Made by a program: the position numbers and the translations under genes. DNA of 4,404 bases. It comes from a virus (taxonomy: Duplodnaviria > Heunggongvirae > Uroviricota > Caudoviricetes). Below the pieces are notes generated by a model, which saw only the letters and a list, made by a program, of their open reading frames with translations, was not told the origin of the DNA and did not search any database. Positions 1 through 4,404 of this stretch are shown here, in pieces. The stretch is from the IMG/VR virus record IMGVR_UViG_2711768001_000010, one strand, 5' to 3'. The first letter of the stretch is position 1, and each line of letters opens with the position of its first letter.

Positions 1-160
1 GCTTTGAACTCTTTAGAGTAACGTTGGGTTTTTCTGCTCATTATTAGCTCCTTCTGATGCCATTCTATTTCAGGAAGGAGTGTCCGTTAAACTCAGGCTA
101 CCTCAGGTTATTCGCTTCTGGGCATGGGCGGATCAACAAATGATAGACGGTAATGCAGAT

Positions 161-181
161 TGTAACGCTCGCGGCGTTACA
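161..181. repeat. 21-bp palindrome TGTAACGC-tcgcg-GCGTTACA inside the initiator coding region
   Basis: Perfect 8-bp inverted arms with a 5-nt centre, read directly. Shares the GTAACGC arm with the site at 370-390. Confidence 0.6.
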
Positions 182-369
182 AAAAGTGCAATAGATCGCA
201 TCACTTTTATGTCTGGTTTTGCTGATGCGTTAATTCAGGTTGGATGGCTGGTCGAAAATGACGGAGGGCTTTCTCTACCTAACTTTGAACGTCATAACGG
301 AAAAAGCTCTAAAAAAAACGGGCGGTTACAAACGAGCGAGTAACAAAAATACGCGAACTGAAACGAAAA

Positions 370-390
370 GGTAACGCTGCCAGCGTTACA
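370..390. repeat. 19-bp palindrome GTAACGCTG-c-CAGCGTTAC (371-389) in the initiator linker region
   Basis: Perfect 9-bp inverted arms around a single central base. Additional GTAACG / GCGTTAC half-sites occur at 18-23, 324-330, 339-345 and 406-412. A 9-bp direct repeat AAACGAGCG occurs at 330-338 and 462-470. Confidence 0.6.
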
Positions 391-414
391 CAAACGGATC
401 AAAAAGCGTTACCA

Positions 415-432
415 GAGGAAGAGGAAGAGGAA
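415..432 (+). repeat. (GAGGAA)x3 hexanucleotide tandem repeat encoding an acidic EEEEEE stretch
   Basis: gaggaagaggaagaggaa read directly; in frame 1 it encodes EEEEEE (followed by D) in the initiator linker. Confidence 0.7.
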
Positions 433-788
433 GATCTAAATACTGATCTCCCCCTCGCCAAAAACGAGCGTCTAAAAAATTCGAGCCGGAGGCTATTGAG
501 CTGCCCGATTGGTTGCCGGAAACACTCTGGCATGAGTGGGTCCGGTTCAGACAGGCATTGCGAAAACCGATTCGAACGGAGCAGGGCGCTAACGGGGCGA
601 TACGGGAACTGGAAAAATTCCGTCAGCAGGGTTTTACACCTGAGCAGGTGATTCGACACAGCATCGCCAATGAATACCAGGGCCTGTTCGCGCCGAAAGG
701 TGTTCGGCCTGAGACGTTGCTCCGACAGGTTAACACCGTCTCGTTGCCGGACAGTGCGATCCCGCCAGGCTTCAGGGGGTAACGGACC

Positions 789-1529
789 ATGAAAAATATT
801 GCGACAGGCGGCGTTCTGGAACGCATCCGCCGACTGACCCCGCCACATGTAACCGCCCCATTCAGAACGGTAGCGGAGTGGCGCGAGTGGCAACTTGCTG
901 AAGGCCAGAAACGTAGCGAGGAGATCAACCGCCTGAATCGCCAGTTGCGGGTGGAAAAAATTCTGAATCGCTCAGGCATCCAGCCGTTGCACCGTAAATG
1001 CTCGTTTGCGAATTACCAGGTGCAGAACGACGGCCAGCGATACGCGTTAAGCCAGGCGAAATCCATCGCCGATGAACTGATGACCGGGTGTACAAATTTT
1101 GCGTTCAGCGGAAAACCTGGTACCGGGAAGAATCACTTAGCGGCAGCTATCGGGAATCGCCTGCTGAAAGACGGTCAGACAGTGATTGTGGTTACCGTGG
1201 CTGATGTTATGAGCGCCCTGCNNNNNNNNNNNNNNNNNNNNNNNNNNNNNNNNNNNNNNNNNNNNNNNNNNNNNNNNNNNNNNNNNNNNNNNNNNNNNNN
1301 NNNNNNNNNNNNNNNNNNNNNNNNNNNNNNNNNNNNNNNNNNNNNNNNNNNNNNNNNNNNNNNNNNNNNNNNNNNNNNNNNNNNNNNNNNNNNNNNNNNN
1401 NNNNNNNNNNNNNNNNNNNNNNNNNNNNNNNNNNNNNNNNNNNNNNNNNNNNNNNNNNNNNNNNNNNNNNNNNNNNNNNNNNNNNNNNNNNNNNNNNNNN
1501 NNNNNNNNNNNNNNNNNNNNNNNNNNNAG
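789..1529 (+). CDS. DnaC-family AAA+ helicase loader (prophage paralog); C-terminal half hidden in N-run 1222-1527, 3' end inferred
   Basis: The N-terminal 144 aa are readable and contain Walker A FSGKPGTGKNHLAAAIGNRLL, KCSFANYQV and IVVTVADVMSAL, closely matching recalled E. coli DnaC (FSGKPGTGKNHLAAAI, IITVADIMSA). ATG at 789 is 6 nt after the upstream TAA stop, with a G-rich SD-like AGGGGG at 772-777. The ORF track reads through the Ns to 1583, which is an artifact. At the in-frame position 1527-1529 the sequence is N-a-g, consistent with a TAG stop giving about 246 codons, and the next gene has its own AGGAGG RBS at 1534-1539. Confidence 0.85.
1222..1527. other. N-run (306 nt) of masked or unsequenced bases inside the DnaC-like gene
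   Basis: Read directly. The length is a multiple of 3, consistent with an uninterrupted frame, but the content is unknowable. Confidence 1.
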
Positions 1530-1543
1530 TTTCAGGAGGATTT

Positions 1544-1966
1544 ATGGCGAAACCTTTTACTCCCGAACAGCGGGAAGAACTGAAGACGCGAATTGTGGAA
1601 CTCGTGCATCAGGACGGTCGGGTCACGATTCGGCAGTTGTCAGATGAAACAGGTATCAGTCGTGCGTCTGTCGGTCGCTTATGCATAGAACTGGTCGCAA
1701 GTGGTGATGTATATAATTCTGGCTACGGCTTATTCCCGTCTGAACAGGCTCGCAAGGACTGGCAAAGCGCCCGCAAAAAACTCTCGAGAGTAAAGGTGAG
1801 GAAACCGGTTGTTGTTGATCCGGACCTTATCTGGTCATTACCTGACGGAGAAATACGCCGCTACGACAGGCGCCTGAATATAATCTGTCGCGAGTGCCGG
1901 AAGAGCGAAGCTATGCAGCGTGTACTGGCTTTCTATCAGGGTAATTTTCAGGAGGCGATACTGTGA
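1544..1966 (+). CDS. Small hypothetical protein with helix-turn-helix-like segment (putative DNA-binding regulator)
   Basis: 140-codon ORF with ATG at 1544, 4 nt after AGGAGG (1534-1539). The segment RQLSDETGISRASVGRLCIEL has a typical HTH pattern. The stop TGA (1964-1966) abuts the next ATG (tgaATG). The family is not recognised from memory. Confidence 0.6.
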   Translation: MAKPFTPEQREELKTRIVELVHQDGRVTIRQLSDETGISRASVGRLCIELVASGDVYNSGYGLFPSEQARKDWQSARKKLSRVKVRKPVVVDPDLIWSLPDGEIRRYDRRLNIICRECRKSEAMQRVLAFYQGNFQEAIL

Positions 1967-2024
1967 ATGAAATTAGCTATCAGGCTTCAATTACCGCTGG
2001 CATTCGCATCAAAGGAGAGGAGCA

Positions 2025-2380
2025 TGGAAATAAAACCAGAAGATGAGTTAAGCAATATCGTTTTATTTCCGGTAAAAGAGGATGACCCTCGTAATCAGGT
2101 TAATTTTCTTTATGAGCCATCGGAAAGACCATATTGCCATCACGCCTCTGTACGGGTTGACGAAAAAGAGCGTCAGGTCCGCTGTAAAATCTGCGGTGCG
2201 GTTGTGGAGCCGTTTGACTGGATGCTCTCTGTGGCAAAAAGAGAAACCAGACTGGCAGATGATGTAAGGCTATTGCGCCAGGAGGAACAGGAAAGGCGGA
2301 GAAATATAGAAAAGCTGATACAGATTGAGCGTAACGCGAAAGCGCGGATACGCAGGGCGACAAAATCCAGAACTGAATAA
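2025..2380 (+). CDS. Small hypothetical Cys/His-containing protein (possible zinc-binding) with charged coiled-coil-like tail; alternative start at 1967
   Basis: The ORF is open from ATG 1967, but the strong RBS AAGGAG (2011-2016) 8 nt before ATG 2025 favours 2025 as the start (MEIKPEDEL...). Contains C-H-H-x15-C-x2-C (YCHHASVRVDEKERQVRCKICG) and an R/E/K-rich C-terminus (RLLRQEEQERRRNIEKLIQIERNAKARIRR). Confidence 0.55.
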
Positions 2381-2407
2381 TTAAATTTAGCACTGTTAAA
2401 AATTTAA
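2381..2407. promoter_or_regulatory. AT-rich palindrome TTAAATTT-N11-AAATTTAA immediately after the stop of the Cys/His gene; candidate operator
   Basis: Perfect 8-bp inverted arms read directly. AT-rich palindromes arise by chance fairly often, so a regulatory role is speculative. Confidence 0.25.
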
Positions 2408-2485
2408 TCCTTAACCGGAGGGATTTCTGCACCCTCAAATCATCAGGAGACCACCCGAAAGGGCGGGGAGCAGTCACACATCTGT

Positions 2486-2514
2486 TTCCGATAGCCCCGT
2501 TCTAATGCTACACT
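2486..2514 (+). promoter_or_regulatory. Weak sigma70-like promoter candidate upstream of the QueH-like gene
   Basis: TTCCGA (2486-2491), 17-nt spacer, TACACT (2509-2514). Poor match to consensus, so this is a weak call. Confidence 0.2.
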
Positions 2515-2527
2515 CTTTGATATTTTT

Positions 2528-3214
2528 ATGACCCCAATAAACATATTTATGACAGTTGCTGATTTCAAACGGCCCAAATTGGAGCTCCCAAACGGGGCAA
2601 ACAAACTACTACTGCACTCTTGCTGTGCTCCATGTTCCGGTGAGGTGATGGAGGCGCTTCAGGCCTCGGGAATCGACTACACCATCTTTTTCTACAACCC
2701 GAACATTCATCCTCAGAAAGAGTATTTAATTCGTAAGGATGAGAATATTCGCTTTGCTGAACAACACGGCGTGCCGTTTATTGATGCTGATTACGACACA
2801 GACAACTGGTTTGAACGAGCCAAAGGAATGGAATGGGAGCCCGAACGAGGGATCCGTTGCACCATGTGTTTTGACATGCGTTTTGAGCGGACAGCGCTGT
2901 ACGCCGCTGAAAATGGTTTCAGTGTGATCAGCAGTTCACTGGGCATTTCACGCTGGAAAAATATGCAGCAGGTTAACGACTGTGGGCGGCGAGCCGTCGC
3001 GCATTATCCGGGCATGGTGTACTGGGATTATAACTGGCGCAAGCAGGGCGGCTCGTCCCGTATGATTGAAATCAGCAAGCGCGAAAAATTCTATCAGCAG
3101 GAATATTGTGGCTGTGTGTATTCTCTGCGCGATACCAATCTACACCGCAAATCTCAGGGACGCCCTCTTATCAAAATTGGTCAACTCCACTACGGTAAAG
3201 AAGAGAAGGAGTGA
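2528..3214 (+). CDS. queH: QueH-like epoxyqueuosine reductase (DUF208 family), phage-carried tRNA queuosine-modification gene
   Basis: 228-codon ORF with N-terminal [11 protein letters not shown] and further Cys motifs ([17 protein letters not shown]) that match my recollection of the DUF208/QueH signature. No SD before ATG 2528; ATG 2549 is an alternative start. The assignment is from motif memory only. Confidence 0.65.
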
Positions 3215-3235
3215 TTTTATGGGGCACCTTTCTGA

Positions 3236-3265
3236 TTGATTTCATATTGGCGAGGTAAGTAGAAT
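3236..3265 (+). promoter_or_regulatory. Sigma70-like promoter candidate (copy a): TTGATT-18-TAGAAT
   Basis: -35 TTGATT at 3236-3241 and -10 TAGAAT at 3260-3265. The same two hexamers, followed by a similar GACT, recur at 3542-3569. Confidence 0.35.
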
Positions 3266-3365
3266 GACTGCGGGTGCTTGAGGCTATCTGCTTCAGGCAT
3301 GAACACCAAAAGGCAGATAGAGAAAAGCCCCAGTTAACATTACGCGTCCGGCAAGACGCTTAACA

Positions 3366-3454
3366 NNNNNNNNNNNNNNNNNNNNNNNNNNNNNNNNNNN
3401 NNNNNNNNNNNNNNNNNNNNNNNNNNNNNNNNNNNNNNNNNNNNNNNNNNNNNN
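3366..3454. other. N-run (89 nt) inside the promoter/terminator-bounded noncoding unit
   Basis: Read directly. Confidence 1.
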
Positions 3455-3476
3455 CATCCTCAACGCACCCGCACTT

Positions 3477-3521
3477 AACCCGCCCATCGCTGTGATCTCT
3501 CAGCGTTTCGGCGGGTTTTTT
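3477..3521 (+). terminator. Rho-independent terminator-like two-tier hairpin followed by T6
   Basis: Outer stem AACCCGCC (3477-3484) pairs with GGCGGGTT (3510-3517). Inner stem CGCTG (3488-3492) pairs with CAGCG (3501-3505) around an 8-nt loop. TTTTTT at 3516-3521. The A-run would precede the stem on the other strand, so it is oriented for + strand transcripts only. Confidence 0.45.
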
Positions 3522-3541
3522 GTTGTTTATTTCCGGTGAAT

Positions 3542-3569
3542 TTGATTCGCGCACCTTCGCAGATAGAAT
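3542..3569 (+). promoter_or_regulatory. Sigma70-like promoter candidate (copy b): TTGATT-16-TAGAAT, upstream of the 3651-4330 cassette
   Basis: -35 TTGATT at 3542-3547 and -10 TAGAAT at 3564-3569, about 20 nt downstream of the terminator-like T-run and about 80 nt upstream of ATG 3651. Confidence 0.4.
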
Positions 3570-3650
3570 CGACTCACTTAAGTAGCGCGCAGGGAGAAGA
3601 GGGATGGACCCCGAACAGGGGAGAGCTATTTATCTGGAAGGATTCTGAAG

Positions 3651-3938
3651 ATGAAAATCGAAGAATTGCGTGAAATTTTTAGTGAAAATGGCCTCTATGC
3701 TGTGCGCGTTGAGAATGGAGCGATTGTCAGCCATTGCCGCATTAGATGTTTGCAATCTCAACAAAGGAAGAGCGGTGCTGTGTTATTTTATTTTTGTAAT
3801 GGACTTCTGACGGACGGTTTTATTTTGCGTGAGGACGAATTTGTCACATCATTACGGGTTTTGAAAGAGATTGGTTTTAAGGCTGGTTTTCTGCTTTTGC
3901 TGAAGAATAAACTCATCTACAATCTTGAGCAGGATTGA
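3651..3938 (+). CDS. Hypothetical protein, first gene of an apparently AT-rich cassette
   Basis: 95-codon ORF with ATG at 3651, 8 nt after GGAAGGA (3636-3642). Appears noticeably more AT-rich than the upstream genes by eye (not counted). Preceded by a promoter-like element (3542-3569) that follows a terminator-like hairpin. No recognisable motif. Confidence 0.5.
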   Translation: MKIEELREIFSENGLYAVRVENGAIVSHCRIRCLQSQQRKSGAVLFYFCNGLLTDGFILREDEFVTSLRVLKEIGFKAGFLLLLKNKLIYNLEQD

Positions 3939-3976
3939 ACTCCTGCTGTGTAACACCGTGCCACCGGAGAAAGCCG

Positions 3977-4330
3977 ATGGCACATATACAACTGGTCAAA
4001 CAAACCTCTTCCGGATTACTTCTCCCGGCGACGCCGGAGAGTTGCGATTTTCTGCATCAAATCAAAATAGGTGAGTGGATACACGCAGACTTTAAGCGTG
4101 TGTGTAACTACGCATTCCACAAGCGTTTTTTCAAACTCCTGCAACTGGGTTTCGATTACTGGACTCCGGTCGGTGGGGCGATCACGCCTCGCGAACGAAA
4201 ACTGGTGTCCGGTTTCGTTGATTACCTGTGTGAATCAGTAGGCCGGGAACATACGCCAGCTCTGAGCGAAGCCGCAGAGCAATTGAGGTGTACTGGCAAT
4301 AGCGGACACTACCATTTGTTCTTTTTTTAA
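3977..4330 (+). CDS. Hypothetical protein; may be truncated at a T7 tract (4322-4328)
   Basis: ATG at 3977 is preceded by GGAGAAAG (3964-3971). The ORF track start at TTG 3935 is less likely. The ORF ends HLFFF-TAA right after the T7 run, while frame 1 is open from 4303 to the window end. Family not recognised with confidence. Confidence 0.5.
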   Translation: MAHIQLVKQTSSGLLLPATPESCDFLHQIKIGEWIHADFKRVCNYAFHKRFFKLLQLGFDYWTPVGGAITPRERKLVSGFVDYLCESVGREHTPALSEAAEQLRCTGNSGHYHLFFF

Positions 4331-4404
4331 GCAGCCATCTGATGATATTTTTCCCTGAAGGCTGCCGGGGAGATATTCCCCAGACGAGAGTGACGACGCT
4401 GACG

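Follow-up and report, generated by a model that had tools for sequence, protein, structure and literature searches.

Lambdoid prophages of Escherichia and Shigella sonnei carry a QueH-family gene, probably captured from an enterobacterial chromosome

The virus record IMGVR_UViG_2711768001_000010 includes a 4,404-nucleotide (nt) stretch of DNA (hereafter the window, meaning its whole length) in which an open reading frame (ORF) beginning with ATG and encoding 228 amino acids (aa) occupies positions 2528..3214 of the + strand. Computational analysis identifies this ORF as queH, the gene of a DUF208/QueH family protein with the full ligand set and a QueH-like predicted fold. Its product is most probably a functional, cobalamin-independent QueH that was captured as cargo by a lambdoid prophage, with lysogenic conversion as the likely effect. 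In the proposed mechanism, phage QueH would act as an iron-sulfur epoxyqueuosine reductase needing no cobalamin and would convert epoxyqueuosine (oQ) to queuosine (Q) at position 34 of tRNA-Asn, tRNA-Asp, tRNA-His, and tRNA-Tyr. A lysogen would complete Q without vitamin B12 (B12), while a non-lysogen would stop at oQ.

Family membership was assessed by profile searches. The Pfam profile PF02677 (QueH) matches the ORF with 220.6 bits (E = 1.9e-65; gathering cutoff, 23.5) over model positions 1 to 174 of 175, and it is the sole Pfam family that does so. The initial annotation of this DNA had proposed DUF208/QueH from an 11-residue signature, residues 27 to 37 of the 228-aa ORF, and from further Cys motifs. 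The full-length profile match and the presence of CCAPC, CTMC, and CGC motifs bear this proposal out. An NCBIfam scan of the ORF gave no match, though the NCBI Prokaryotic Genome Annotation Pipeline (PGAP) names the protein QueH, and we take this as a gap in the library and not as counter-evidence. When 1.84 billion cluster representatives were searched exhaustively with HMMER, 4,755 relatives were retrieved at E ≤ 1e-3, including 2,516 at E ≤ 1e-10. The only solved relatives found by sequence are Thermotoga maritima QueH (7lc5 and its mutants), which match residues 27 to 203 with E = 5e-22 and share 30 to 31% identity over about 180 residues.

To locate the ligands, 70 diverse, near-full-length family members were aligned together with the Thermotoga sequence (71 sequences in total). 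The CCAPC motif of the 228-aa ORF (C32, C33, and C36; 2621..2635, + strand, as are all features of the gene given below) aligns with C9, C10, and D13 of T. maritima QueH. Of the 66 members with a residue at this site, all have Cys at the first two positions; at the third, 62 have Cys and 4 have Asp. The CxxC motif CTMC (C111 and C114; 2858..2869) aligns with T. maritima C87 and C90, and these positions are Cys in 69 and 70 of the 71 aligned sequences, respectively. Finally, the CGC motif (C194 and C196; 3107..3115) corresponds to C169 and C171, with Cys in 66/71 and 67/71 sequences and mostly gaps in the remainder. The six Cys equivalent to T. maritima C9, C10, C87, C90, C169, and C171 are thus essentially invariant across the family, whereas the seventh ligand position is Asp13 (CCAPD) in T. 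maritima (7lc5/7lc7/9deu) and Cys (CCAPC) in the phage protein. A reading of CCAPC as a functional variant of the Thermotoga motif was rejected, as Cys is the family majority at this position; judged by the alignment, CCAPC is the canonical form and CCAPD the minority form. C152 of the ORF shows no conservation in the family alignment. The Protein Data Bank (PDB) includes C9S and D13N mutants of Thermotoga QueH, so both positions have been targeted. Li et al. (2021) reportedly assigned which QueH residue binds which metal, that is, the [4Fe-4S] cluster or the adjacent iron.

An AlphaFold2 model built from 45 sequences has a mean predicted local distance difference test (pLDDT) score of 78.1 and a predicted template modeling (pTM) score of 0.79. 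When the model was queried against the PDB with Foldseek, the top five matches were all T. maritima QueH, including the C9S and D13N mutants and a queuosine complex, with target-normalized template modeling (TM) scores of 0.75 to 0.78 and E values down to 2e-10. The next matches were TtuA, LarE, and argininosuccinate synthetase-type folds. The predicted model fits the QueH fold, a Rossmann-like core of the adenine-nucleotide alpha-hydrolase type, to which the phage protein adds about 20 C-terminal residues relative to T. maritima QueH that are of low confidence in the model. A reductive-dehalogenase-like fold with two ferredoxin-type clusters, as in QueG, was not recovered, the closest structures being QueH and PP-loop-type enzymes.

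The first ATG of the ORF is probably not the translation start. ATG 2528 was rejected as the start codon because it is not conserved, with E. coli A10 and Enterobacter reading CATTACC at this site. In contrast, ATG 2549 is kept in the alignment of phage and chromosomal copies, and PGAP also places the start there. The likely coding sequence is therefore 2549..3214 (221 aa plus stop), which shortens the 2528-3214 span initially proposed for the gene. The identical 221-aa protein is already catalogued at NCBI as 'epoxyqueuosine reductase QueH [Shigella sonnei] / MULTISPECIES [Enterobacteriaceae]' on at least 1,000 contigs. With the family characterized and the exact protein named in RefSeq, the gene itself is already known; it is an ordinary member of a known family, and the mildly new angle is its carriage by phages.

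That carriage is consistent across genomes. A queH gene was found in 995 of 5,426 complete E. coli genomes (18%), almost always as a single chromosomal copy, and 985 of these matches are nearly full length. Many more E. coli genomes match the flanks (4,299) than match queH (942 to 995). The gene occupies an identical slot in ST131, O157:H7, A10 (a wild-bird isolate), NCTC10537, and FDAARGOS_944, bounded upstream by the replication module (YdaU/YdaV/DUF1627/DUF977) and downstream by hok or the nin/RusA/Q genes. Similarly, among 80 proviral loci from IMG/VR, DUF977 lies at most 1 kb upstream of queH in 72 and hok at most 1 kb downstream in 64. Among phage records, 74 match only the flanking hok/sok DNA and 1 carries queH. 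The sole isolated GenBank phage with a close copy is the temperate Escherichia phage HannyBb. Other GenBank phage matches obtained by tblastn were set aside, either as unannotated fecal 'Bacteriophage sp.' fragments or, for the 'Acinetobacter phage MD-2021a' records (328 to 379 kb), because their viral nature is doubtful. 

The slot also accommodates other genes. A Dcm/NgoMIV restriction-modification pair replaces hok/sok downstream of queH in 10 of the 80 IMG/VR loci; in the O157:H7 Z1768 locus (L085, 4872-6882), for example, a DNA cytosine methyltransferase and an NgoMIV-family restriction endonuclease follow queH. With such alternative cargo, the gap between DUF977 and nin looks like a general cargo hot spot.

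The lambdoid early-region neighbors and the shared slot across Escherichia and Shigella loci agree with the view of the initial annotation that the gene is prophage-borne. It had also suggested that enterobacteria normally use the unrelated QueG and that QueH would be a non-orthologous backup. The first part holds for Escherichia, with queG in 5,426 of 5,426 complete E. coli genomes, but not for the many Enterobacterales with a resident QueH. The second fits E. coli: given the universal queG, every one of the 995 queH carriers has both reductases. QueG (YjeS, a cobalamin/[4Fe-4S] enzyme) performs the same reaction on the same tRNAs (PMC5372724) and coexists with phage QueH in the same cells, but the two are not homologous, and QueG needs cobalamin (PMC4646009).

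The limits of homology delineate a mobile cassette of about 740 bp at 2478..3220 (+ strand), consisting of a promoter-like element and the gene, without a terminator. Homology to HannyBb and E. albertii begins at 2478, that to the Enterobacter hormaechei chromosome does not extend beyond 2485-3221, and queH-less phages match again from 3217 on, in the hok/sok leader. Chromosomal QueH proteins with 78 to 93% identity occur in Enterobacter, Kluyvera, Scandinavium, Kosakonia, Erwinia, Pantoea, Serratia, Rahnella, Ewingella, Pectobacterium, Dickeya, Sodalis, Proteus, Providencia, Photorhabdus, and others. The identity amounts to 86 to 93% in Enterobacter, Kluyvera, and Scandinavium and to 78 to 86% in Erwinia, Serratia, Rahnella, Pectobacterium, and Proteus. 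Phage queH descends from the same clade as these chromosomal genes, with which it shares length, ligands, and the conserved start. Chromosomal copies, however, sit among non-phage genes that are constant within a genus, none of them common to the reference prophages, whereas the Escherichia, Shigella, and E. albertii copies are the only ones embedded in phage DNA, those of Escherichia and Shigella being found only in lambdoid prophages. A phage-borne status of the Enterobacter, Kluyvera, and Scandinavium copies was considered and rejected, as they have no phage proteins in common and their neighbors include a LysR regulator, a glycosyl hydrolase, and DUF1543. The homology with the Enterobacter chromosome being limited to the cassette, and resident queH relatives being at hand, the sequences suggest that phage queH was probably captured from an Enterobacteriaceae chromosome together with a short upstream region.

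Several chromosomal neighborhoods have features of their own. The closest copy outside Escherichia, 93% identical, is that of E. hormaechei B56 (L005, 9181-9885), where a 234-aa ORF of the phage integrase family lies directly upstream of queH and a LysR regulator downstream; this copy may belong to a small integrative island rather than to the core chromosome. In Erwinia and Pantoea (L017, 7971-9863, and homologous loci), queH consistently lies between an HD-domain gene and a pair made up of a Dcm-type cytosine methyltransferase gene and an ORF of 155 aa, probably Vsr, a conserved neighborhood with no obvious queuosine link. The Rahnella neighbors are an AI-2E transporter and DUF969.

In its layout, queH resembles the morons of lambdoid phages: it is a single gene inserted between conserved modules, is missing from otherwise homologous phages, and has its own promoter-like element and an evolutionary source unlike that of its neighbors. 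It differs from a typical moron in that no terminator was detected and in its cargo, a tRNA-modification enzyme instead of a surface, toxin, or defense protein.

The protein has been under constraint. The ratio of non-synonymous to synonymous substitution rates (dN/dS) is 0.025 to 0.076 relative to other prophage copies (e.g., 2 non-synonymous versus 19 synonymous differences) and 0.01 to 0.04 relative to the Enterobacter copies. Prophage copies differ from one another at 15 to 37% of synonymous sites, and the seven ligand Cys are intact in all phage and chromosomal copies examined. The low dN/dS among prophage copies indicates purifying selection on the protein while it was phage-borne.

Regarding expression, an extended -10-like element, TGCTACACT, is present at 2506..2514 (+ strand), 34 nt upstream of ATG 2549, and represents a putative promoter. 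The element is invariant or nearly so in the alignment of phage and chromosomal copies, while the remaining upstream DNA is unrelated. Of the 14 closest loci, 12 have the pattern TGnTAnnnT 31 to 37 nt before the start codon, the background being 2.5% per scanned window. In the closest chromosomal genera the element upstream of queH reads TGCTACA(C/A)T, and in genera further removed, different -10-like sequences are found about as far from the start. It is reasonable to infer a private promoter for queH, from which the gene would be transcribed in the lysogen. At E ≤ 0.01, Rfam reported only sok, and no preQ1 riboswitch or other element near queH.

Lysogenic conversion is the likely effect because the hosts have a B12-dependent QueG and make no cobalamin de novo, as is the case for both E. 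coli and Shigella. The substrate of the reaction should be available, the supply of oQ-tRNA by tgt and queA being established in E. coli K-12 (PMC9508795); in Shigella flexneri, tgt is vacC (PMC1950534). The cobalamin requirement of the QueG step is documented (PMC4646009, citing Frey 1988). QueH has been described as an alternative oQ reductase (PMC5372724, PMC6461909) and as an iron-dependent alternative to QueG (PMC13443448), and other QueH members complement an E. coli queG mutant, according to the summary of Zallot 2017 in PMC5372724. Judging by its family, the phage protein would likewise be independent of B12; it would be catalytically active in this host, and its carriage may bring a fitness benefit.

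Several points weigh against this interpretation. The literature search found no experiment on the present protein or on any phage-borne QueH. The ligand assignment rests on the alignment and on the names of PDB mutant entries. A strict sigma-70 -35/-10 scan of the + strand upstream of queH called no promoter, no terminator was called downstream of the gene or on its other side, and there is no evident Shine-Dalgarno sequence before ATG 2528 or ATG 2549. Because queH points the same way as the early rightward operon, its expression might be restricted to the period after induction. In S. sonnei, the gene lies in a dead remnant and could be there by historical accident. Moreover, oQ and Q are not known to us to differ functionally in decoding.

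The orientation of the gene also bears on an alternative that we regard as unlikely, namely that queH serves lytic growth. Transcribed with the early rightward operon after induction, it would turn oQ-tRNA into Q-tRNA and thereby favor the translation of phage NAC and NAU codons. In line with this, queH reads in the same direction as the replication and nin genes, it is located within the delayed-early region with no terminator predicted on either side, and such prophages bear tRNA genes downstream. However, these tRNAs, located past the nin region in the intact FDAARGOS_944 prophage (L001, 23404-23714), are Ile, Arg, Thr, and Gly, none of which is Q-modified. The -10-like element travels with queH and is common to the chromosomal copies, where it must act alone, and queH is intact in the S. 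sonnei remnant, which is incapable of lytic growth. In addition, a short lytic cycle would leave little time for remodeling of the tRNA pool.

It is improbable, in our view, that queH is a neutral hitch-hiker without effect beside QueG, retained solely on account of the young age of the prophage or of the clonal S. sonnei lineage. The gene is indeed redundant with queG in every E. coli genome that has it, 82% of E. coli genomes do without it, the S. sonnei copy resides in a decaying, insertion sequence (IS)-ridden element, and unrelated cargo, the Dcm/NgoMIV pair, fills the same slot elsewhere. Yet a dN/dS of 0.03 to 0.08 (rounded) among prophage copies with the synonymous-site divergence given above is difficult to reconcile with neutrality, all examined copies are intact with complete ligands, and the match covers <80% of the gene in just 10 of the 995 E. 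coli genomes.

To our knowledge, no epoxyqueuosine-like base occurs in DNA, and another substrate, such as a 7-deazaguanine DNA modification of the phage in place of tRNA, is very improbable: 78 to 93% identity to housekeeping enterobacterial QueH and strong purifying selection argue against a new substrate, and no DpdA/TGT-like, QueC, QueD, QueE, FolE, or QueA gene was found in searches by annotation and Pfam, which very divergent homologues may escape; these covered the whole FDAARGOS_944 prophage, 77 of the 90 HannyBb genes, and the 10 kb around queH at six S. sonnei loci (Pfam). This alternative had been raised by the initial annotation, and preQ0-derived bases are indeed used in phage DNA (Hutinet 2019, PMC6884629), but it gains no support from the prophage, the inspected HannyBb genes, or the remnant. 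Dpd-type phage clusters, such as that of phage 9g, likewise consist of phage-borne genes of the queuosine/archaeosine pathway, but they center on DpdA and preQ0 synthesis (FolE/QueD/QueE/QueC), whereas here a lone late-step tRNA enzyme is carried.

If a functional QueH is expressed, the prophage would alter the tRNA modification chemistry of its host and lift a vitamin dependence. More tentatively, lambdoid prophages may convert the tRNA modification state of their hosts on a broader scale, by supplying a self-expressed, cobalamin-independent QueH to S. sonnei and to some 18% of E. coli, so that Q could be completed in B12-poor niches such as the inflamed gut or intracellular growth, in which non-lysogens would stall at oQ. 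This could affect the translation of Q-sensitive genes, possibly including VirF-dependent Shigella virulence, and the intact queH in a remnant otherwise stripped of useful genes could then reflect domestication. Queuosine status is known to affect VirF translation and virulence in Shigella flexneri (PMC1950534), a link that makes B12-independent completion of Q in S. sonnei worth a simple experiment.

Among the viruses covered by a 2019 survey of queuosine-pathway genes, none was reported to encode QueA, QueG, or QueH (PMC6884629). In contrast, the QueH cassette is present in lambdoid prophages of S. sonnei and of roughly a fifth of sequenced E. coli. Our literature search found no paper on phage-borne QueH; a text match in PMC6206895 was discarded, being the author name Quehenberger and irrelevant to QueH. 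Annotation may also be improved, as the gene is labeled 'hypothetical protein' in HannyBb and its PHROGs family, phrog_3217, 'unknown function'. The match to phrog_3217 spans 2648-3211 (residues 41 to 228), and this 188-position profile begins at Met41, downstream of CCAPC, suggesting that a truncated ORF is called in many phage annotations.

The window itself is 100% identical to S. sonnei chromosomes (e.g., CP019689), and its match to E. coli prophages is confined to positions 105-4283. It is a 4.2-kb piece of a decayed lambda-like prophage in Shigella sonnei with a copy of IS600 on each side. The prophage setting initially assigned to queH therefore holds as regards the lambdoid DNA, but what is left of the element here is dead, being cut by a pair of IS600 copies and devoid of late genes. 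In S. sonnei, this remnant is shredded by ISs, adjoins modABC/gal, and has lost all late genes. On the left, an IS600 end (1..106, - strand) truncates the phage replication-initiator gene; it matches copies annotated 'IS3-like element IS600 family transposase' at 100%, and identical S. sonnei loci have IS600 orfA/orfB gene calls at this position. On the right, a second, identically oriented copy contributes its opposite end (4284..4404, - strand; 100% match to IS600), which truncates the NinB/DUF1367 gene and creates a 117-aa fusion ORF at 3977..4330, the product of which is found on 531 contigs and named from Shigella sonnei. In NZ_AP018808.1, positions 1-106 and 4284-4404 correspond to opposite ends of a single IS600 copy (902609-903873). 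The second, right-hand IS600 borders directly on an integrase fragment in the S. sonnei remnant and joins NinB to it, which points to an IS-mediated deletion of the whole late region. The resulting 4.18-kb phage fragment between direct-repeat IS600 copies has a composite-transposon-like layout and contains rep', a dnaC-like gene, DUF977, a Zn-ribbon ORF, queH, hok/sok, rem, and ninB'.

Upstream of queH, the YdaU-type replication initiator is split into two frames (80..343 and 513..782) and is a pseudogene here, its 5' end being cut by IS600 near position 105. The FDAARGOS_944 initiator is a single 262-aa ORF (L001, 17589-18377), and the alignment of that locus with the window over 105-1221 has two gaps. 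In the window, the initiator is followed by a DnaC/YdaV-like loader that is masked in part by 306 N (1222-1527), which replace 312 nt. The DUF977/Ren-like gene (1544..1966, + strand; PF06163, E = 1.1e-33; phrog_142) is the last conserved gene of the replication module and forms the upstream border of the cargo slot. Between it and queH lies a small zinc-ribbon ORF of 137 aa (1967..2380, + strand; phrog_1621, E = 5e-56) with a weak Zn_Ribbon_TF match under the Pfam cutoff. This ORF occurs in only some queH prophages (12 of 80 viral loci).

The gene immediately following queH belongs to hok/sok, a type I toxin-antitoxin locus (PF01848 HOK_GEF) at 3236..3600 (+ strand). The Rfam match to sok (RF01794) at 3272-3331 scores 53.9 bits, under the gathering score of 59 because an N-run cuts the match. 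The mok/hok frames are masked by this run (3366-3454), and as the N-runs change length, its 89 N stand for 285 nt with complete mok/hok frames. The unmasked identical locus encodes Mok/Hok (...MKQQKAMLIALIVICLTVIVTALVTRKDLCEVRIRTGQTEVAVF...), and the 70-aa Mok-Hok is intact in the identical S. sonnei locus (L091, 9213-9425). Beyond hok/sok lie a Rem-like ORF (3651..3938) and the DUF1367/NinB gene truncated by IS600. Within the hok/sok locus, a promoter-like TTGATT-18-TAGAAT was observed at 3236-3265, and a second, identical hexamer pair is present at 3542-3569, ahead of the Rem-like ORF.

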